Origin: a virus | Taxonomy: Duplodnaviria > Caudoviricetes | Length of the DNA stretch: 53,141 nucleotides | Virus record (IMG/VR): IMGVR_UViG_3300030389_000481 | Location: 1 to 53,141 of that record | Reading direction: 5' to 3' (one strand) | In this document: positions 2,945-49,341 of the stretch, in pieces | How the letters are laid out: the number at the start of each line of letters is the position of its first letter | Position numbering within the stretch: position 1 is the first letter of the stretch | Made by a program: the position numbers and the translations under genes | The notes under the pieces: generated by a model | The model's input: the letters and a program-made list of their open reading frames with translations, nothing else | The model's database searches: none | Told to the model about the DNA's origin: nothing

Positions 2945-4577
2945 AGAAAAAAAAACTTCAAAATACTTGACAGATGCAAATGGCGACTATATACTAAATA
3001 AAGATGGTAGTCGTAGGAAAAAACCCGGCAGACCAAAAAATAAAGAATTATCTAATATTCAATTAGCATTAAGAGCTAAAAAACAATTAGATAAAAAGAA
3101 CAAGAAAGTTAAAAAGCTAACTAGAAGTTTAGCAAAAGTAAAAAAAGAAGTCAAACAAGAAGAAAAAGTTTTGACTTCAAATGTTTTAACAGAGTCAGAT
3201 ACTAAAGAGTTACCTGATGCAATACAAGAACATTTAGATACTACTGGGGATTATGTGGCGTTTATGCCCAATGATGGTCCTCAAACAGATTTTTTAGCTG
3301 CTTCCGAAAAGGATGTACTTTATGGAGGAGCAGCAGGTGGTGGTAAAAGTTTTGCAATGTTAATTGACCCATTGCGATATTGTCACTTACCAGAACATAG
3401 AGCTTTAATACTTAGGAGGTCTATGCCAGAACTACGAGAACTTATAGATAAGTCTCGTGAACTCTATCCAAGAGCATTTAAAGGTGCTAAGTTTAGAGAA
3501 GTAGAAAAGTTGTGGCAGTTTCCTAGTGGAGCCAAAATAGAATTTGGGTTCTTGGAACGAGATGCTGATGTTTATCGTTATCAAGGACAAGCGTACAGTT
3601 GGATAGGTTTTGATGAAATAACTCATTTACCTACAGAGTTTGGTTGGAATTACTTAGCATCACGACTAAGAACTACTAACCCAGAGATAAAAACATATCT
3701 AAGATGTACAGCTAACCCCGGTGGTGTAGGTGCACAATGGGTAAAAAAAAGATATGTTGATTCAGCAGAACCTAATACAACATTTAAAGGTTCAGATGGA
3801 TTAACAAGAAAGTTTATACCAGCGTTGTTACAGGATAATCCTTACCTCGCTGAAGATGGTGAATACGAAAGGATGTTAGAATCCTTACCAGCAGTACAGC
3901 GTAAGCAGTTGTTGGAAGGAAACTGGGATGTCGCAGAAGGTGCAGCGTTTGCTGAATTTGCTTTAGACACTCATGTTATATCTCCTTTTGAATTACCTTC
4001 TTGGTGGGAGAGGTTAAAAGGAATAGACTATGGTTACGCTGCAGAAAGTTGTTGTCTATGGGCTGCTGTAGACCCTGATGATAAGACCATCATTATATAT
4101 AGAGAATTATACAGGAAAGGTCTAACAGGGGAAGCACTCGCTGACACTATAACACAGATGGAAGAAAATGAAATTAAATCTATTCCGGGTGTTTTAGATA
4201 CTGCTGCATGGGCAAGAACTGGATATAGTGGTCCGACTATTGGTGAAACCCTAGTCAATAGAGGACATAAATTAAGAAGGGCAGATAAAAATAGAATAGC
4301 TGGTAAGACTCAAATACATGAGCATTTAAGGCAAAGAGATGGTGGCAGACCTAGATTGCAAATATTTAGTAGTTGTGTTAATCTAATTAAAGAATTACAA
4401 GGTATACCATTATCTTCTAAAAATCCGGAGGATGTAGATACACATGCTTCGGACCATGCTTATGATGCATTAAGGTATTTGTTAATGAGTAGACCAAGAA
4501 CAGACCATCCATATGATAGGATGATGCGAATAAAAACAGATTTATATCGACCTTCGGATGATGGATTTGGATACTAA
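2934..4577 (+). CDS. terL: Terminase large subunit
   Basis: Walker A GGAAGGGKS, Walker B FDE, coupling motif TANP, nuclease IDYG and DHAYDALRY. Confidence 0.95.
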   Translation: MVDKEKKTSKYLTDANGDYILNKDGSRRKKPGRPKNKELSNIQLALRAKKQLDKKNKKVKKLTRSLAKVKKEVKQEEKVLTSNVLTESDTKELPDAIQEHLDTTGDYVAFMPNDGPQTDFLAASEKDVLYGGAAGGGKSFAMLIDPLRYCHLPEHRALILRRSMPELRELIDKSRELYPRAFKGAKFREVEKLWQFPSGAKIEFGFLERDADVYRYQGQAYSWIGFDEITHLPTEFGWNYLASRLRTTNPEIKTYLRCTANPGGVGAQWVKKRYVDSAEPNTTFKGSDGLTRKFIPALLQDNPYLAEDGEYERMLESLPAVQRKQLLEGNWDVAEGAAFAEFALDTHVISPFELPSWWERLKGIDYGYAAESCCLWAAVDPDDKTIIIYRELYRKGLTGEALADTITQMEENEIKSIPGVLDTAAWARTGYSGPTIGETLVNRGHKLRRADKNRIAGKTQIHEHLRQRDGGRPRLQIFSSCVNLIKELQGIPLSSKNPEDVDTHASDHAYDALRYLLMSRPRTDHPYDRMMRIKTDLYRPSDDGFGY

Positions 4578-7659: not shown

Positions 7660-8541
7660 ATGACTGATAAAGTCCAACAAGAGGAAAAGCCAAATCCTTA
7701 TAACGCTAAAAAAGATTGGCACACGAATGATGATAAACCTTTTAGTTCATCAGAAAGTCTTTACTTTGAAGAACCTTCTGAAAAAAATAAATTGTTTAAT
7801 ACTTCGGATATAACTGAAGCAGAAGACAATGTTAATACAGAAGAATTGGAAGCTACAAAGGATAAACCTTATAGCAAACCAGACTACAAAAAAAGATATG
7901 ATGATTTAAAAAGACATTATGATAGGAAACTCAACGAGTTTAAAACTAGAGAAACAGAGTTGAATAACCAACTAAAGGATGTAAGTCCTAGTTATACAGC
8001 TCCTAAAACTGTAGAAGAACTTGAAGAATTTAAAAAATCCTATCCAGAAGTCTTTGATGTTGTAGAAACTGTAGCACATCTACAAAGTGAGTCTAAAGCA
8101 AAAGTTCTAGAAGAACGCCTTAGTAAACTCCAAAAAAGAGAACTAGAGATGATACGACAAGATGCAGAAAAAAGGTTGAATGAAAGACATCCTGACTTTG
8201 ATGATATTAGAGATAGTGATGAATTTCATAACTGGGCAACTAATCAGCCAGAGTCCATAAAAACATGGATATACTCAAATGCTGATGATGCTGACCTAGC
8301 TTCTCGTGCTCTCGATTTATTTAAGCGAGATATGGGGATGGATTTACCAAAAGAGGAAAAGTCATCTTCAAGGACTAGAAAGACTGCTGCTGATATGGTG
8401 TCAACAAAAACTAAAACTGTTGAACCAAAGCAGGAGAAAGTTTGGTCCGAACAGGAGATTGCTGCAATGAGCATGGCAGAATTTGATAAGTACGAACAGG
8501 AAATATCAGATGCTATGCAAGAAGGCAGAATCATAAGATAA
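7660..8541 (+). CDS. Capsid scaffolding protein
   Basis: Acidic coiled coil, YKKRYDDL, C-terminal EGRI; directly before capsid; AGGAGG RBS before ATG 7660. Confidence 0.8.
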   Translation: MTDKVQQEEKPNPYNAKKDWHTNDDKPFSSSESLYFEEPSEKNKLFNTSDITEAEDNVNTEELEATKDKPYSKPDYKKRYDDLKRHYDRKLNEFKTRETELNNQLKDVSPSYTAPKTVEELEEFKKSYPEVFDVVETVAHLQSESKAKVLEERLSKLQKRELEMIRQDAEKRLNERHPDFDDIRDSDEFHNWATNQPESIKTWIYSNADDADLASRALDLFKRDMGMDLPKEEKSSSRTRKTAADMVSTKTKTVEPKQEKVWSEQEIAAMSMAEFDKYEQEISDAMQEGRIIR

Positions 8542-42504: not shown

Positions 42505-44185
42505 CTAATTCGCAACGCAACTTATAAAATTCACCGGCTTGTTTTATCGCATCACACCCTAAACTACCAACTCTATCTGCTTCACTTGATAATACTTCTA
42601 ACTGCCATTCATCATGTATGTTAGCTACAAACTTAGCATCAATGTTACTAGCTTTAATTGATTCATTTAAAATACACATAGCTTTCTTCATTACTATAGC
42701 ACCACTACCTTGTAGTAGAGTGTTCAAAGCAGAGTGAGGACTTCTGACATATATTTTTCTTCTGTCAATTCCTAGTAAAAACCCTCTACTTGCAGCCATC
42801 TGCACCTTATCTCTTAATTTTCTTAATGCAGGTAAGTTCTTAAAAAATCTTTCTTTCAGTTCTTTACCTTTCTTAATATTACCTTTAGCTATCTTACCTA
42901 TCTTAGCATCACCTGCTCCATAAACCAAAGCATATATAAATGTTTTAGCTTGGTCTCTAGTTTGTAATCCTGCTAACTCTTGATTGGTTGTATGTATATC
43001 TCCATGTAAAACTTCATTAATATAATTATCATCAGCCATGTAGTGAGCTAACATTCTTAACTCTAATCCACTAGCATCTATACCTACTAACTTATAGTTT
43101 TCTGGCACAGTAAAACATGCCCTACATTCCTTACCAAAAGGACTTCCTAAGTTTGGAACTTGAGCCATGTTAGGATTTCTATGAGTCATTCTGCCTGTTA
43201 TAGTTCCATTGGGAATAACTCTACCATGAACTCTATTATCTTTTAGTTCATCTATCCATGATGATATTTGTGCTATTCTTTTTTGGAATAGTAAATAGTC
43301 TGCTATTAGTTTAGCTTCTTCAATATGTTCAATCTTTTTAAGTGTGCCTTCATCTACAATAGGTTGACCAGTAGGAGTAAACCTTTCAGGTTTCCAACCA
43401 AAGTCAATAAGATATTCTCCTATTTGTTTGCGACTTCCTAAATTAAACTCAACTAACTTCTGTCTCATAAAAGGTTCAACACTTTGATTTTTAATACAGT
43501 TTTCATATTCTTCATCTGTTAATCCTCTCTTACTTAACTGACCATCTTTCTTGATGTATGGTGTAACTAACTTATCATCTACAAGCTTGGGTTTAAATGT
43601 AGCTTGAACTAATAGTTCTGTTTGTGCCATTCTGTCTTGTAAGTCTGCAAGTAATTCCATTGCTTGTCTTTCATTAAAATGAAATCCTGTTTGTTCTTGC
43701 TCTGTAATAATCCCTGCTACTGCATGTTCTAGCTCTAGTGAGTGCTTACTAAAACCTTTACTTTCATTCAACAAATGCAAATATACTTTTTCATTTAACA
43801 ATACATCACCTGCACAATACTCTAACATGGTAGGAGAATAAGAGGTGAAATCTTCTGGCTGTTCTTGCTTAAACATTCCAACTCTATATCCCCATGTCTT
43901 TAGACTATGTCCATTTTCCCTTACAGGATTGTAAAGTCTGGACATCACTAAAGTATCCACTACTTCCCCATGATAATCAAAGTCATGCAGTTCCTTTAAT
44001 ACTCTTAAATCAAAACCAATTATATTGTGACCAATTAAAGTGTCAGCTTTACTAAGTAAATCTAAACCATCTTGTATTTCATTTGGACCAAACTTATATA
44101 ACTTGCCTTCTAAATCTTTTGCAACTAAACACCAAACTCTTGTAGCAAGTAAATCATCTGTCTCTATATCAAAAATCAATTTCAT
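42461..44185 (-). CDS. DNA polymerase family A (T7-like, with 3'-5' exonuclease)
   Basis: DIETD exo, DASGLELR, R..AKTFIY...YG, HDE; start likely MKLIF at 44185. Confidence 0.95.
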   Translation of the reverse strand: MKLIFDIETDDLLATRVWCLVAKDLEGKLYKFGPNEIQDGLDLLSKADTLIGHNIIGFDLRVLKELHDFDYHGEVVDTLVMSRLYNPVRENGHSLKTWGYRVGMFKQEQPEDFTSYSPTMLEYCAGDVLLNEKVYLHLLNESKGFSKHSLELEHAVAGIITEQEQTGFHFNERQAMELLADLQDRMAQTELLVQATFKPKLVDDKLVTPYIKKDGQLSKRGLTDEEYENCIKNQSVEPFMRQKLVEFNLGSRKQIGEYLIDFGWKPERFTPTGQPIVDEGTLKKIEHIEEAKLIADYLLFQKRIAQISSWIDELKDNRVHGRVIPNGTITGRMTHRNPNMAQVPNLGSPFGKECRACFTVPENYKLVGIDASGLELRMLAHYMADDNYINEVLHGDIHTTNQELAGLQTRDQAKTFIYALVYGAGDAKIGKIAKGNIKKGKELKERFFKNLPALRKLRDKVQMAASRGFLLGIDRRKIYVRSPHSALNTLLQGSGAIVMKKAMCILNESIKASNIDAKFVANIHDEWQLEVLSSEADRVGSLGCDAIKQAGEFYKLRCELDGEYKVGGDWSETH

Positions 44186-45812
44186 TATCGAATGTCTCCT
44201 CCTCTGTAAGTTCATGTAGTCTACCAGTATCAACATCATATGTAAGACTACAAGCCATACCTGTGTCGCCTGTATATCTTGATTTCAATACACGAACTTT
44301 TGTTATATTAGCTTCTTCTGGATTTTCTGCTTGTTGATTTCTCTCCAATGCAATCACACAATCGGACAACTGTGCTATTCCTTGTGAACCTTTAAGATGT
44401 GAGAGAGATACTTCTATGCCTTTCTCATGTCCTCTGTCTCCAGAAGCTCTACGCAAGTGAGAAACAAGTATCATCCCAACACCTGTCTCCTCTACCAAAC
44501 TACGAAGTCTGTTCATGAGCATATCAATACCTCTCCTTTCATCACCCTCTGTCAACACATTTACCAACATGTGTAAGTGGTCAACAACTACCCAGTCACA
44601 CTCACATCCTACAATAATATATCTGAGCTTAGAAAAGATTTCATCAATATCAGTAGCTCCTAAATGTGCATGGATAAATACTCTACCCTTTTGAATTGCC
44701 TTATCAAAGAAGGCATTTAGTTCTTCATCAGAATAATTCTTTCGTTTCTCTGTAAGATACAGTCTGTCATTAGCTTCAATAGATACAATACCATCTGCAG
44801 TTCTCACCCAGTTTTCTTCTAATGCCACAATACCTACATTATCTTTTGTGTTCTTAATTAAATGGTGTTCAAGTTCTCTAGTCACACTAGACTTACCTAG
44901 TCCTGTTCCACCAGTTAAAGTTACCAGCTCACCTTTTCTCATACCATAGAGTTTCTTGTTCAGTCCTTCCCAAGGATAAGCAATACTTTCTTTAACTTCT
45001 CTATGTAACCAGTCACTCTTTTTATCATGTAGTTCTATAATGCCAGAGGGAGTGTAAGTCTTAGCTTCCCACCAAGAATTAGTAAACTCTTTGAACTTTT
45101 TCTTGACAAGCATTTCGTTTGCATCCTTGTATCCATTTGGTAAGTTTACTATCTTAGCTTTGCCCGGCTTAAGAATACGAGCCACCTGTCTGGCAGCTTC
45201 TCTACCTGCCTTGTCATTATCAAAACAAAGAACAACATTGTCGAAGCTTTCAACAAACTCAATGCTCTCTCTAATATCTTTTACAGCAGAAGATGCTCCT
45301 CGTTTGATAGATACAACTGCCCACTTGTCTTGAAACAATTCATTGACTGCCATTGCATCACATTCACCCTCAGTAATTGTTAGATACTTACCACCAGTAT
45401 TACGATACAACTGCTCACCAAACAAACCTGTTCCTTGAAAACTTCCATTGCAAGTAAAGTTTTTATTGTCAACATATCTAGTTTTAGTTCCAACTATTTC
45501 ACTTCCATTGTAGTAAGGATATATATGTTGTTTGATTTTATTATTATTATCTCTTACTGTCCTTACTCCAAACTTCCTTGCAGTATTTTCAGATATGCCT
45601 CTATCCTCTAAAGAACTATAGCTCCCTGTATATGAAGTAAGAAAAGTAGTTTCGCTTTTTATAGGTGTAATGTTTGCTTCACCAGTCTCATAATCATAGT
45701 AAGCATTACAACTGAAACATTTTGCATAGCCATTACTATTCAATGACACAGCATCTGAACTGTCACACTTCTTGCATGGCAGTTTATGTTTAACAAATTT
45801 AGAATTTTCCAT
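44169..45812 (-). CDS. T7 gp4-like primase-helicase
   Basis: Cys4 zinc finger, TOPRIM EGE.D/FDND, GTGLGKS, DHL, LKGS. Confidence 0.95.
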   Translation of the reverse strand: MENSKFVKHKLPCKKCDSSDAVSLNSNGYAKCFSCNAYYDYETGEANITPIKSETTFLTSYTGSYSSLEDRGISENTARKFGVRTVRDNNNKIKQHIYPYYNGSEIVGTKTRYVDNKNFTCNGSFQGTGLFGEQLYRNTGGKYLTITEGECDAMAVNELFQDKWAVVSIKRGASSAVKDIRESIEFVESFDNVVLCFDNDKAGREAARQVARILKPGKAKIVNLPNGYKDANEMLVKKKFKEFTNSWWEAKTYTPSGIIELHDKKSDWLHREVKESIAYPWEGLNKKLYGMRKGELVTLTGGTGLGKSSVTRELEHHLIKNTKDNVGIVALEENWVRTADGIVSIEANDRLYLTEKRKNYSDEELNAFFDKAIQKGRVFIHAHLGATDIDEIFSKLRYIIVGCECDWVVVDHLHMLVNVLTEGDERRGIDMLMNRLRSLVEETGVGMILVSHLRRASGDRGHEKGIEVSLSHLKGSQGIAQLSDCVIALERNQQAENPEEANITKVRVLKSRYTGDTGMACSLTYDVDTGRLHELTEEETFDNEIDF

Positions 45813-45844
45813 AAGTCACTATCTCCAATAATAGAATTAAAAAG

Positions 45845-45918
45845 TGTGGCGTTGTTCATATGGCGTGAGCCAAACTGGATTTATACTTTAATGGTTATCC
45901 ACTTTTCCACCAACCACA
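45845..45918 (-). ncRNA. Structured RNA motif, copy 1
   Basis: Shares core sequence with 48526-48639; stems covary between copies. Confidence 0.7.
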
Positions 45919-45926
45919 GGGGGATA

Positions 45927-46157
45927 CTAAGACTCGGGTTGATAAATTACATCATTCGTTAAGAATGGTTGTAATTGATTATTCAACTCGGTAATCGCAG
46001 CCTTTAAGACTATCGACCTTTTGCCCAAAGTATTGAGTTCACTCTGCGTTGCTAACAATGCATAGTAAATACCTTGTGCTTCCTCACTTAGTTTGAGGAC
46101 ATCATATTCCATATCATCTACACGATATGTAATCTTTGGTTGTTTTTCATCTGCCAT
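45927..46157 (-). CDS. Hypothetical protein
   Basis: 76 aa; DD.EYDV..LSEEA then coiled coil. Confidence 0.65.
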   Translation of the reverse strand: MADEKQPKITYRVDDMEYDVLKLSEEAQGIYYALLATQSELNTLGKRSIVLKAAITELNNQLQPFLTNDVIYQPES

Positions 46158-46159
46158 GA

Positions 46160-46573
46160 TTAAAACTCCTCGCCTTCATCGAAGAACTCAGAGCCATCTT
46201 CAGCTTTATACTCAACCAAGTCAATGATTTGAACAGCTTGTAGGTCAAGACTTTTACCTTCTTTACCTGCATATTCCCATTCATATTCATTGCATTGAAC
46301 TCTAACTTTAGAGCCATTACCAACAGCTAGATTTACATCTTGCTTATTTTGGTCAAGTAGTCTTGGTGCATTCCTAACCATTCCGTTAGGACCATTCACC
46401 TTCCTCTTGATAATTAAAGCAGGACCTTCATCCATCTGCTTTACTGTATGACCTTTACTAGCAAAGTCATCAGCAACATCCTGTTCAACAACCAAGTTGA
46501 CTGTATAAACAGGTTCAAAAGTCGTATTAGGTGTCTTAATTGATGCCCAATACGCAGTTCCATCTATTATCAT
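46160..46573 (-). CDS. ssDNA-binding protein (T7 gp2.5-like)
   Basis: G.AYWA, VGNGSKV, LQAVQIIDLVEY; acidic tail ending in F. Confidence 0.85.
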   Translation of the reverse strand: MIIDGTAYWASIKTPNTTFEPVYTVNLVVEQDVADDFASKGHTVKQMDEGPALIIKRKVNGPNGMVRNAPRLLDQNKQDVNLAVGNGSKVRVQCNEYEWEYAGKEGKSLDLQAVQIIDLVEYKAEDGSEFFDEGEEF

Positions 46574-46604
46574 AATTACCCTCCATAGGTTAAAATAGAA
46601 TTAG

Positions 46605-46638
46605 CGAGAGTTTTCGAGCCACCTACTCTCAGAGGTGA
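46605..46638 (-). promoter_or_regulatory. H-type pseudoknot in the SSB leader
   Basis: UCACCU-C-UGAGAG-U-AGGUGG-CUCGAAAA-CUCUCG. Confidence 0.7.
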
Positions 46639-46702
46639 GGTTTCCCAACCTACTATAATGGAGATAGAGGTTTCGGTTGCTCGTAATTCTATCATCCATG
46701 CC

Positions 46703-46731
46703 ATATTACTCAACATCATTTATCTTGTCAA
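46703..46731 (-). promoter_or_regulatory. Sigma70 promoter for SSB/replication genes
   Basis: TTGACA-17 bp-TAATAT. Confidence 0.65.
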
Positions 46732-46933
46732 GCATACAGTCTAGTTCTTTCATAAACTGTTCATCAGTTTTATCTGTCTTGTTTAAAAGTTCTATCTCAA
46801 ACTTCCTTTCATTTGTTCCCATGTTATTAATACATGTGACTAAGTGTGGTATATCTACATCCATAAACTTTTTTAGTTTATCAATGCTTTGGGTAAACTC
46901 CCGATATTCTTCTTCTGTTAGTATTGCTTTCAT
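46706..46933 (-). CDS. Hypothetical protein
   Basis: ORF with GGA RBS. Confidence 0.6.
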   Translation of the reverse strand: MKAILTEEEYREFTQSIDKLKKFMDVDIPHLVTCINNMGTNERKFEIELLNKTDKTDEQFMKELDCMLDKINDVE

Positions 46934-47153
46934 TTCTTTTCCTTCTCTCCCTCCACCATAGATACATAAATAATAATATCAATGCAGGTTGTATTATAAC
47001 AAATATTAATATATTTGCTAACATGTATCCCAGTCCAGTCACATCACCTATCCAAACTAATACATCAACACACCAGTAAAAAAATTGTTCTACCCATGTG
47101 CCAACAGTAAATATTAAATCTGAACAGTATCCAGTTAAATTATCTTTAGTCAT
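46881..47153 (-). CDS. Hypothetical membrane protein
   Basis: Hydrophobic helices; CV..L......G..Y...NI.IF. Confidence 0.6.
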   Translation of the reverse strand: MTKDNLTGYCSDLIFTVGTWVEQFFYWCVDVLVWIGDVTGLGYMLANILIFVIIQPALILLFMYLWWRERRKRNESNTNRRRISGVYPKH

Positions 47154-47308
47154 CTACCTTGCCCTCTATATTTTTTGTAACTTCTTTTTTTACTTTTATT
47201 CATAGTAGACATTGCTATTTTAATACGCCTACCACGCCCTCCAATGCCCTGTGAGCTACTCTTTTTAACATGGTCTATGGATTGTATTGTTTTAGTTCTT
47301 ACTGCCAT
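47150..47308 (-). CDS. 52-aa basic peptide ending KKYRGQGR
   Basis: GGAGG RBS; overlaps both neighbours; below ORF-track cutoff. Confidence 0.7.
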   Translation of the reverse strand: MAVRTKTIQSIDHVKKSSSQGIGGRGRRIKIAMSTMNKSKKRSYKKYRGQGR

Positions 47309-47574
47309 TTAAGGTCATCCTCCCTATTGTTTAAAATTGTCTCTAAGTCTCCCTTTATATCATCTCTTATGGTCATCAACTGTTGAAAATCTCCAGTAAA
47401 ATCTAACCACTCCTTGCCCTCTACATCCTTTATCCAAATAATATCTTGAATACTCCCTCCATTCATAGCAAGAAGAACTATATTATCAATCGCATACGCT
47501 ACATCACTTGCATAGGTCTGCAAAGTCTCTACTGTGTTCCCCTCCATAACACATTTAATCTCGTATTTTCTCAT
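47299..47574 (-). CDS. Hypothetical protein
   Basis: 91-aa ORF in operon. Confidence 0.6.
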   Translation of the reverse strand: MRKYEIKCVMEGNTVETLQTYASDVAYAIDNIVLLAMNGGSIQDIIWIKDVEGKEWLDFTGDFQQLMTIRDDIKGDLETILNNREDDLKWQ

Positions 47575-47837
47575 TAACTATTTTCCTTATCGTGAACATA
47601 CAACATAATTATCGCATAGTGTATTAGTTTAAGTATGTCTTTCCGATTGTATCCTTGTTTCCTTCCATACCTTTTAATGTATTTAATAATATTACCCATG
47701 CAAAATCCTTCTCCCAATCCTGCATCAATAATAATATCTGTTGCTTGATATTTATTATCAGCGTAATGACTTTTGTAAGTGTCATCAATATAGTCTTGTA
47801 TTTCTTCCAGTAGTTGTGTCTCATTAAACTTATTCAT
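47574..47837 (-). CDS. DUF3310 / T7 gp1.7-like nucleotide kinase
   Basis: HY...Q..D.I......GFC.GNIIKY..RYG.K...D..K..HY. Confidence 0.75.
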   Translation of the reverse strand: MNKFNETQLLEEIQDYIDDTYKSHYADNKYQATDIIIDAGLGEGFCMGNIIKYIKRYGRKQGYNRKDILKLIHYAIIMLYVHDKENS

Positions 47838-48088
47838 TTATACTCCATTAGTTCTTTATATGTTTTAATATGTGGATACTTCTTTAATCTTTTCATTATC
47901 CATTTATCAGTCATATAAGATAACTGCATACGCCCTTCACCGAACACATGAGTTTGGTCTGGCAATAATTCCCATACATTATCTGGTGTTATCTTACTTG
48001 CTTGTTCTTCTGGCAATAGTTCCCTCAACCATTCGACTTGAATAGTTTTAACTCTACGCCTAAGTTCTTTTAGTTTTTTAGTATTCAT
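47834..48088 (-). CDS. Hypothetical protein
   Basis: AGGAG RBS; 84 aa. Confidence 0.65.
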   Translation of the reverse strand: MNTKKLKELRRRVKTIQVEWLRELLPEEQASKITPDNVWELLPDQTHVFGEGRMQLSYMTDKWIMKRLKKYPHIKTYKELMEYK

Positions 48089-48237
48089 ATACTCCTTAAA
48101 AAGTTTATCACAATTAATCCGAATATGATTATACCTGCAAGAAAAGGTAGCATCAATTCACTTTCCTTCTTGAAAGAACGCCACCATCTACGCATTTTAA
48201 TTCTATTCATTCTTTGTGCTCTTGTTAATCTTCTCAT
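48085..48237 (-). CDS. 50-aa Arg-rich protein with C-terminal TM
   Basis: MRRLTRAQRMNR...LPFLAGIIIFGLIVINF; ATGA overlaps at both ends. Confidence 0.55.
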   Translation of the reverse strand: MRRLTRAQRMNRIKMRRWWRSFKKESELMLPFLAGIIIFGLIVINFLRSI

Positions 48238-48395
48238 ATTACCCTCAATACTAATTCTTCTATGTGAATTTTTCCTAATTTAACATCATCATAACCTTCA
48301 TCAATCCAGTTATCATAATGTTCTTTTGCTTTTTTGTATGTAGTAAAGTAGTCATCACAACCACCAACCCAAACAACATATTTATAATTATTCAT
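48234..48395 (-). CDS. Hypothetical protein
   Basis: GGAGGGT RBS; VWVGG...W...GYDDV. Confidence 0.65.
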   Translation of the reverse strand: MNNYKYVVWVGGCDDYFTTYKKAKEHYDNWIDEGYDDVKLGKIHIEELVLRVI

Positions 48396-48525
48396 ATACC
48401 CTCCATAAATAGGTGCTAGTTTTTTATTAGAGACTTTGAAACTAGCAAAACAGTTGCCTCGCAATGCTGTGTTTTGTTATTTATCGACATTGAAACACCC
48501 TCGCAAATGAGAAAAAATCAGTCTA

Positions 48526-48639
48526 GTATAAGGCGTTGTTCATATGCTTTCTAATCTACTGACTAATCCTAGTGTCTTCAATCTCAAGCAAACTGGATTT
48601 ATACTTTAATATCTATCCACTTTTCCGATAACCTTATAC
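48526..48639 (-). ncRNA. Structured RNA motif, copy 2
   Basis: Same core as 45845-45918 with different paired stems and a longer variable loop. Confidence 0.7.
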
Positions 48640-49341
48640 ATGAATGACAAAACCCGACATATCATGTCGTGCCTTGCCCTTCGCTTTTAGACCTACGACT
48701 ACATTGCGTTTGTCTAAAAACCTTAAGTCGCTTTCATCACCATTGACAACCTCTCTACCTTTGAAGTAGATAGGGAAAGCACCATTGAATACTACTGCTA
48801 TGTTGTATGCTATCTTGTCATACCACTTAGCATACTTATCACTTGCTTCTGAATAAGACCAAGTCAAATGATAGTTGTCTATATCTGATACTTTTCTTGT
48901 TGGGATTTTAGTGTAATCATAAAATTGTATATTTGGATAGTGTTCAAATACATTCTTATCTTTATACTTAATAAGTTCCCATTGTATATCACTCGTGCCA
49001 TTCAACCTGATTGCTGGTTCTTTGTCTTTCTTGTAGCAGTAATTACTAAACCTTTGTATTTCATCTAACAATATTTCCATAAATGTCTCATTGTCTGTAA
49101 GAAATAATTCAGTTCTACGCTGTCGTGCATCTTGTATTCTATTGCTAGTCTCACCTTTCTTGAATATACCACCACGCCCAGCAGTATTTAAACACGCTGT
49201 CTTACAACCAGCGATGTCTTGATATGGACATATCCTTGTAGAGATAGGTCGTAAGTGCATGATAGCACTAATGTAAGTATCATTAACTTTTTCACCTTTT
49301 AATATCTTTGGATTGTTAAAGGTCAGTAGTTGGTATGCCAT
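48634..49341 (-). CDS. Gp88-like Cys-cluster protein
   Basis: CP.....GC...CL...GRG, RLNGTSD, FYDYTK, GD..DLRFLD. Confidence 0.7.
   Translation of the reverse strand: MAYQLLTFNNPKILKGEKVNDTYISAIMHLRPISTRICPYQDIAGCKTACLNTAGRGGIFKKGETSNRIQDARQRRTELFLTDNETFMEILLDEIQRFSNYCYKKDKEPAIRLNGTSDIQWELIKYKDKNVFEHYPNIQFYDYTKIPTRKVSDIDNYHLTWSYSEASDKYAKWYDKIAYNIAVVFNGAFPIYFKGREVVNGDESDLRFLDKRNVVVGLKAKGKARHDMSGFVIHV

Follow-up and report, generated by a model that had tools for sequence, protein, structure and literature searches.

What is the sequence that stands twice among the replication genes of a marine phage of SAR11 type, with the same bases in its junctions and different bases in its stems? The question arises from the 53,141-nucleotide (nt) IMG/VR record IMGVR_UViG_3300030389_000481 (the whole of this stretch is called the window below), in which a sequence-only reading had proposed a twin structured RNA on the minus strand. 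We re-read this motif on that strand as copy A (45845-45918) and copy B (48526-48639) and compared it with relatives from other viral contigs, whose loci are given here as L numbers. The motif proves to be a real structured RNA, its stems covary and it contains a pseudoknot. It appears to be restricted to replication modules of marine phages that are uncultured and, as the Rfam models fail to match it, is a member of no known family.

A covarying, pseudoknotted fold

All three invariant blocks described by the sequence-only reading are present in both copies. The 22-nt block occurs exactly twice in the 53-kb window (0.01 occurrences expected; two or more in none of 100 shuffles), and the 13-nt block also has two exact matches there. 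The stems lie where they had been placed, and each of them differs between the copies by compensating changes. The outer stem, P1, joins UGUGG (45914-45918) to CCACA (45845-45849) in copy A and GUAUAAGG (48632-48639) to CCUUAUAC (48526-48533) in copy B. Inside it, the P2 hairpin pairs UGGU (45909-45912) with ACCA (45892-45895) in copy A and UAUC (48627-48630) with GAUA (48610-48613) in copy B. A third hairpin, P3, is short in copy A (UGGC-UCAC-GCCA, 45861-45872) and long in copy B (48545-48590), where it has a UGCUU/AAGCA stem and a 36-nt insert module. The UGGAU of the P2 loop can pair, as proposed, with a downstream AUCCA in both copies (45897-45901 with 45876-45880 in copy A; 48615-48619 with 48594-48598 in copy B). 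Junction J3/1, which reads UAUGAACAACG in copy A (45850-45860) and spans 48534-48544 in copy B, is invariant among the larger variants (alignment A1, below), and its terminal CAACG is shared with the smaller ones. One base past P1 of copy A there is a run of five U (45839-45843). Two copies alone are insufficient to prove covariation, but the relatives supply the proof.

The motif occurs in two size classes. Type 1, to which both window copies belong, is a three-way junction of P1, the 4-bp P2 hairpin and P3, the last varying in length from about 12 to more than 120 nt. Type 2 is a minimal form of about 55-60 nt that lacks P3 in all 26 of its distinct sequences. In both types the innermost two pairs of P1 are invariant G-C pairs and a lone U comes next; the P2 loop ends in (U)GGAU and a purine; UUAAAG lies immediately 3' of P2, with five variable bases and then AUCC after it; and CAACG abuts the 3' strand of P1. 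P1 itself measures 4-12 bp across the variants and encloses a structured domain of 45-170 nt. Some 30 unpaired or junction bases are invariant across the two size classes and several phage lineages, and the alignments of both types present an aptamer-like fold that is conserved, covarying and supplied with invariant junction bases.

Covariation was evaluated in three alignments of related sequences, whose cells are not independent events. In alignment A1 (type 1, n = 23), 95.0% of the cells were paired against 79.8% after shuffling, and double changes were found at 15 of 20 pairs, values that none of 500 shuffles reached. Alignment A2, which comprises 63 distinct sequences and was fitted to a covariance model (a procedure that favours the modelled structure), gave 93.5% paired cells against 74.3% and double changes at 16 of 20 pairs (0 of 500 shuffles); when the 3' partner was slid by 1-3 columns as a control, pairing was at most 42%. 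In alignment A3 (type 2, n = 26), 89.1% of the cells were paired against 79.3%, with double changes at 9 of 17 pairs. Here the percentage paired, the number of double-change cells and the covariation score were each reached by 0 of 500 shuffles, and the number of pairs with double changes (86 of 500 shuffles) and of further pair types (411 of 500) were unexceptional.

Among the individual helices, P2 is 100% paired in both A2 and A3, with double changes at all four of its pairs in A2, and P1 and the basal pairs of P3 covary across the family. Of all the helices the pseudoknot varies least, with three of its five pairs constant and two covarying in relatives. Its outermost pair is U-A in 50 sequences of A2, A-U in 10 and unpaired in 2, and its innermost pair changes from U-A to A-U only in the second of two copies at L024. 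The claim of covarying stems, made from two copies, is thus upheld in homologues for P1, P2, P3 and the pseudoknot. By minimum-energy folding copy A is no more stable than its own shuffles (z = -0.68), so the structure rests on covariation rather than on energy. About 19 G-U cells in A2 would become A-C mismatches if the opposite strand were read; these pairs, together with the constant co-orientation of the motif with its flanking genes, identify the transcribed strand as the one named by the sequence-only reading.

Three other readings of the same bases were rejected. GTGGATA resembles a DnaA box at the DNA level, but the window has no excess of such boxes, and type 2 keeps the pairing while losing the resemblance. 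A coding role would require either read-through of the stop codon at copy A, which adds only 12 residues, or use of the AUG in J3/1, which is absent in type 2. A local GGA/UCC hairpin in the type-2 junction is predicted by energy folding but is not conserved.

The P3 inserts are portable modules common to different RNA backbones (48545-48590 of the window, minus strand; L037 and L056; L038, L040, L043, L057 and L072). The copy B module recurs in P3 of L010, L012, L018, L041 and L042 and also lies inside a different structured RNA of L037 and L056, described below as motif X. With GAA opposite AGUA beside a GAC/GUC stem, it looks like a loop-E (sarcin-ricin-type) motif. A second module, AGUAGUCCAUACAUAGUAUCGGCU, is found in three settings: inserted in P3, alone as a hairpin before the primase gene in L043, and 3' of the motif in L057. 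At L024 (10549-10787, minus strand) two motif copies stand in tandem about 150 nt apart, the second having GGAA with UUCC, a shorter junction J2/3 and CAAAG in place of CAACG.

Distribution and novelty of the family

The RNA family is well supported, uncatalogued in Rfam and unusual in its high share of invariant bases. Rfam 15 gave no match at gathering score across the whole window. When positions 45700-48800 were searched at E ≤ 10, nothing overlapped either copy on its own strand, the lone overlap being a 14.7-bit match to ceN47 on the opposite strand; 101 nt around copy A (E ≤ 10) and a type-2 copy were likewise without a match. The sequence-only reading had likewise not recognised the family.

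A pattern of the conserved core was found in 31 stretches of IMG/VR viral contigs, 30 of which contain the whole element, and a looser core pattern in 68 stretches. In addition, 80 loci were fetched by means of the primase-helicase protein, and these and the window (81 sources) were searched with covariance model R1. All 28 matches at E ≤ 0.0005 share their strand with the primase gene. Of these, 26 come from the oriented loci, each just upstream of primase, and two are the window copies (copy A, 90.3 bits, E = 7e-17; copy B, 115.4 bits, E = 2e-22). In all, 65 distinct sequence variants were parsed, from uncultured marine viral contigs.

Searches beyond these contigs were negative. No match was obtained by blastn with copy B and a type-2 copy against 50,697 GenBank phage records, and a search with the covariance models was equally negative over 19-23 kb of the Pelagibacter phages HTVC115P and HTVC103P, whose primases are the closest cultured relatives of the window primase (46% identity). 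In 185,579 prokaryote (bacterial and archaeal) genomes the core pattern occurred at 24 places, none with a convincing model match (L179, E = 0.077 with R1; L180, 23.3 bits with R2). On reading, L180 and L169 lack the P1 and P2 pairing. All of these places were treated as chance matches. The motif appears to be confined to uncultured marine phages. No description of it was found in the literature searched, and its conserved strings occurred in none of the texts searched. It may be among the 10,006 unnamed candidate RNAs predicted from IMG/VR by Fremin et al. 2023 (PMC10690425), the text of which does not mention primase.

Replication genes and possible transcript boundaries

In the window, the minus strand carries the early and replication genes, which are read leftwards starting from the right end. 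Their order is a promoter-like site (TTGACA, 17 nt, TAATAT; 46703-46731, a consensus match) that would head the unit, the gene for a Gp2.5-like single-stranded DNA-binding protein (SSB; 46160-46573; phrog_112, E = 1e-9), an open reading frame (ORF) of 76 aa with no family match (45927-46157), copy A, the five U, and then the genes for primase-helicase (44169-45812) and DNA polymerase. Copy A starts 8 nt past the stop codon of the 76-aa ORF and ends 32 nt before the primase-helicase ATG at 45812. Upstream of copy B lies a GP88-family gene (48634-49341; PF17338, E = 7e-38; phrog_1617), the stop codon of which falls within the 5' strand of P1. Both the adjacency to stop codons and the primase-helicase neighbour had been pointed out from the sequence. 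No phage-own RNA polymerase was recognisable among the annotated window ORFs of at least 120 aa.

RNA evidence is available as contigs from four RNA runs. Contigs of two studies (X3 record 14 and X8 record 22), which have no loose ends at copy A, end at 45846 and 45849, that is, in the 3' strand of P1. The contig of X1 record 3 ends at 46697, 6 nt past the second hexamer of the promoter-like site. Together with the predicted promoter, these ends give a weak hint that the SSB unit measures about 850 nt and finishes at copy A. Stretches that the contigs leave uncovered, such as the primase gene in X3 and X8, and contig depths were given no weight. Another RNA-library contig (48547-48697) crosses the 5' boundary of copy B.

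Two noncoding stretches near the copies deserve mention. The SSB leader would be about 120 nt long (46576-46697, minus strand), from the predicted start site at the contig end 46697 to the ATG at 46573; a 47-aa ORF at 46576-46719 begins upstream of this start site and is probably not a gene. The 130 nt past copy B (48396-48525, minus strand) hold no convincing ORF, only a mini-ORF of 24 codons, and contain hairpins and a possible TTGCGA-17-TAAATA promoter. This stretch is conserved in L008, L014, L022 and L115 and stands directly before primase in L069 and L070.

The interval between the upstream stop codon and the ribosome-binding site of primase (the primase slot) was compared in the 72 primase loci with at least 260 nt upstream. 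The motif fills this slot in 29 loci, and other sequence types fill it in 43. Some of these 43 have a GC-rich hairpin whose loop reads UGUAAAA, in many cases with a U-run behind it; some have a hairpin that resembles P1 and P2 fused after loss of the pseudoknot part; some have hairpins consisting solely of a P3-type insert module; some have motif X, which is also closed by a stem and a U-run; and some have other sequence. In HTVC103P a canonical terminator lies between the SSB and primase genes. Where the motif itself occupies the slot, P1 would close directly ahead of a U-run, 8-18 nt before the ribosome-binding site. Counted by eye, 37 of the 63 parsed variants have a TTTT run that starts no more than 3 nt beyond P1, almost all of these variants being in the primase slot; the run reaches eight U in L095, and the type-2 form at L074 combines a 7-bp P1 with six to eight U. 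From the equivalence with hairpins it follows that the slot demands a stem and then a U-rich sequence before the ribosome-binding site, which, to judge from sequence, is the signature of a terminator, an attenuator or a 3'-end hairpin. The motif is one elaborate way of filling this requirement.

Motif X was read at L052 (about 7860-7980, plus strand) and also lies upstream of primase in L037, L045, L047, L048, L051, L056, L060, L065 and L068. It measures about 115-150 nt. A stem of 8 bp closes it, the two helices inside show compensatory changes, an inserted hairpin varies, and long unpaired stretches are invariant; a U-run follows. Rfam 15 gave no match to it. The UGUAAAA-loop hairpins recur inside motif X, as plain hairpins in the primase slot of the L076-L111 group (for example, L104, about 3380-3420), and as two 24-nt direct repeats that flank the motif at L149 (4935-4958 and 5022-5045). 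With a closing U-A pair the loop would leave a GUAAA pentaloop, reminiscent of boxB-type protein-binding hairpins.

Outside the primase slot the motif is also found ahead of genes that encode Gp2.5-like SSB, an O-like initiator of replication, a MazG-like pyrophosphatase or one of several small uncharacterised proteins, and all of the neighbouring genes that could be identified are replication genes. Promoter and origin assignments in these loci are consensus matches. In L117, L153 and L158 the motif is upstream of a Gp2.5-like SSB gene; in L158 a predicted TTGAAC-17-TATAAT promoter lies 3' of the motif and separates it from that gene, so that the motif would terminate the unit before it. A predicted TTGACA-17-TATAAT promoter lies 125 nt upstream of the motif in L125. 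At L149 the motif lies between the two identical 24-nt repeats, just upstream of the O-like initiator gene. At L136 (about 3997-4204, minus strand) some 190 nt are inserted between the motif and the ribosome-binding site in comparison with L127 and L122; bounded by TACAG on both sides, this insert may be a small mobile or structured element.

Five loci (L010, L123, L132, L137 and L154) differ from these in that the motif begins at the predicted start of a TTGCAA-17-TATATT promoter, which directly follows two or three TGTGGATAA (DnaA-box) repeats, and a canonical terminator follows about 70 nt past the motif with no ORF between. The surrounding region (6150-6800 in L010, and likewise in the other four) is an origin-like noncoding region of about 600 nt without an ORF, in the order terminator, G-rich run, repeats, promoter, motif, small hairpin, CCUCC-containing stretch and canonical terminator; for L010 it gave no match in Rfam 15. 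In L010, CCUUUCC (the P1 3' strand and its flank) could form 7 bp with GGAAAGG, which lies in the 5' arm of the downstream terminator. This possible antiterminator pairing shrinks to 5 bp in L123. In this context the motif could be part of an attenuator or of a small RNA.

Candidate roles

We tentatively favour the reading that the motif is a cis-acting control element at transcript boundaries in the replication module of SAR11-type marine phages, acting as an attenuator or 3'-end element in which closure of P1 is made conditional by the pseudoknot domain. During transcription the P2 hairpin would form first, its loop would then pair with the downstream AUCC to give a compact H-type pseudoknot, and the 3' strand of P1 would close the domain last, in the primase slot directly ahead of the U-run. 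Because P1 is short, its closure would depend on the pseudoknot domain. Once folded, the element might act like the terminator-type hairpins that related phages have in the primase slot: the upstream (SSB) transcript would be ended or stabilised, and read-through and ribosome access to the primase-helicase and polymerase genes would be limited. The invariant bases (UUAAAG, CAACG and the junction-side G-C pairs) may provide a site, in the shape of a pocket or a surface, at which a small molecule or a protein acts as effector and sets the fraction of molecules folded. The slot shared with terminator-like hairpins, the contig ends at copy A and the contig across the 3' edge of copy B tilt the context towards a boundary or attenuator role rather than self-cleavage; the sequence data are not decisive.

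This reading has parallels among known regulatory RNAs. The lambda nut/boxB sites with tR1 and the putL and putR sites of HK022 are twin structured cis RNAs of early operons that control read-through into replication genes by acting on polymerase at terminators. A put RNA has two stem-loops side by side, lacks a pseudoknot and lies 3' of an early promoter; nut, a short hairpin, is the binding site of N. The motif is similar to both in being a twin, related, structured and putatively cis-acting RNA beside replication genes. It differs from put in that P1 encloses a hairpin and a pseudoknot and in that no Rfam match is found, and, unlike nut and put, it itself abuts a U-run. We know of no sequence similarity between the motif and nut or put, and no N-like protein was identified. 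In the primase slot the motif also resembles a Rho-independent terminator in having a stem that closes right before a U-run, in the same slot as the HTVC103P terminator, but here a stem of 4-8 bp closes around a structured domain of 45-170 nt and the U-run may be missing. By analogy, the motif might work like a lambdoid terminator combined with a cis-acting RNA that gates replication genes, or like a pseudoknot riboswitch with P1 as the switching helix. A third parallel is the autoregulatory pseudoknot of T4 gene 32 mRNA, which likewise combines a pseudoknot in the leader of a replication gene with an A/U-rich unstructured stretch and a ribosome-binding site. Most copies of the motif, however, are downstream of the SSB gene, before primase-helicase or other genes, and in L158 a promoter lies between the motif and the SSB gene. 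The text of Fremin et al. 2023 (PMC10690425) gives 12 candidate RNAs upstream of GP32 genes.

Several points weigh against the favoured reading. Of the 63 variants, 26 have no U-run next to P1, copy B included, so termination is no universal action of the motif. Many P1 stems in the primase slot have only 4 bp around at least 45 nt, unlike a canonical terminator, and a terminator scan listed neither copy. No conserved expression platform was found, with nothing general in the primase slot; sequestration of the ribosome-binding site by the P1 3' strand was rejected, as there is no consistent complementarity. In L010 and L123 the motif stands at the predicted transcription start with a separate terminator 70 nt later, an arrangement that fits the 5' domain of a small RNA equally. 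A plain hairpin serves related phages in the slot, whose basic function can therefore do without the elaborate domain. Finally, the RNA data are contigs that give neither strand nor true ends and have no DNA control; X1 record 2 covers all of copy A (45822-45977) and extends 23 nt beyond P1, and X1 record 6 (48432-48604) bridges the 3' edge of copy B.

A more specific proposal, which we regard as rather unlikely, is that the pseudoknot domain is the aptamer of a new riboswitch class in SAR11-type phages. It would sense a host nucleotide-related metabolite or alarmone, and P1 closure before the U-run or the ribosome-binding site would gate the replication genes (primase-helicase, SSB, initiator and MazG). 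The preQ1-II, SAM-II/SAM-V and fluoride aptamers are small pseudoknotted domains with invariant junctions that lie in 5' leaders near the ribosome-binding site. The motif shares with such H-type pseudoknot aptamers a domain of about 55-60 nt, invariant junction bases, an optional embedded hairpin, an A-rich strand that could lie in a helix groove and a position near the ribosome-binding site. It differs from them in that it has no Rfam match, leaves the ribosome-binding site outside the pseudoknot and offers no expression platform beyond the candidate pairing of L010, and in that it adjoins phage replication genes where those aptamers adjoin metabolic genes.

A doubtful alternative dispenses with both switching and effector: the P1-closed pseudoknot would be a constitutive module for RNA stability or for 3' or 5' ends, blocking exonucleases or RNase E and so shielding the upstream message or, where it stands at a 5' end, the RNA that follows. 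Such a module could be exchanged for plain stable hairpins, as is seen in the primase slot, and would explain contigs that end at the base of P1 in copy A rather than in or past the U-run. The presence of the motif at a predicted 5' end (L010 and L123), at unit ends (L158) and inside operons also suits a module that works regardless of context. A hairpin that merely confers stability, however, has no use for some 30 unpaired or junction bases kept invariant in both size classes and in several lineages, and the plain hairpins of relatives show that a far simpler structure is enough.

The five loci with DnaA-box repeats, a promoter, the motif and a terminator but no ORF suggest instead a trans-acting or origin-associated RNA, such as an origin transcript, a primer or a decoy bound by a replication protein; the folded domain would then be the working part of a small phage RNA and would not regulate the gene beside it. 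The repeats around the motif upstream of the O-like initiator gene at L149, and the fact that every identified neighbour is a replication gene, also agree with this idea. We nevertheless consider it improbable, as most copies stand in operons, have neither a promoter nor a terminator to themselves and are separated by 8-30 nt from the ribosome-binding site that follows. In the window there is no cluster of DnaA boxes (17 one-mismatch sites against 18.7 expected), and the origin and promoter assignments on which the idea draws are consensus matches.

It is quite unlikely that the motif is a self-cleaving ribozyme of a new class, one that would divide polycistronic phage transcripts at the gene boundaries. 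Small ribozymes typically show a pseudoknot, numerous unpaired nucleotides that are invariant and an optional stem whose length varies widely; the motif is intergenic whatever its neighbour, occurs in at least two copies per genome or locus, and has RNA contigs ending near its 3' edge. Those two ends are 3 nt apart and inside P1, however, rather than at one defined junction, and other contigs bridge the 3' and 5' boundaries of copy B (48432-48604 and 48547-48697) or cover copy A (45822-45977). No ribozyme family of Rfam 15 matched even at E ≤ 10, and plain hairpins stand in for the motif in relatives. The sequence-only reading had described the topology as loosely pistol-like. In pistol ribozymes a hairpin loop pairs with a downstream strand, an A-rich linker follows the hairpin and a variable hairpin follows the pseudoknot strand; P3 is obligatory and carries the cleavage site. 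The motif has a similar loop-downstream pairing and A-rich linker and, in type 1, a variable hairpin as well, but its outer stem encloses the whole element and its minimal type lacks P3, which excludes a pistol-like active site. The Pistol model (RF02679) gave no match at E ≤ 10 to 45700-48800, to the 101 nt around copy A or to a type-2 copy. With the form lacking P3 being widespread, the comparison with pistol was not borne out.

A conserved recombination linker or mobile cassette, kept for module exchange without a function at the RNA level, is very improbable: flanks do differ among related contigs and switch exactly at the ends of P1 (loose ends 48525 and 48528), P3 inserts are shuffled among backbones and 24-nt direct repeats surround the motif of L149, but compensatory changes in four helices, strand-specific G-U pairs and co-orientation with genes would not be expected of such an element, and the covariation disfavours it.

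In several lineages of marine phages the motif stands at the boundary before replication genes. Its size of 60-115 nt makes it accessible to biochemical tests at once, and the full motif, the minimal motif and the plain hairpin, which nature offers in one slot, are a ready-made mutational experiment. Were it a ribozyme, it would represent a new ribozyme class, and likewise for an exonuclease-blocking fold. A conditional attenuator or a riboswitch, if that is what it is, would give a direct handle on how these phages couple their replication to the state of the host.

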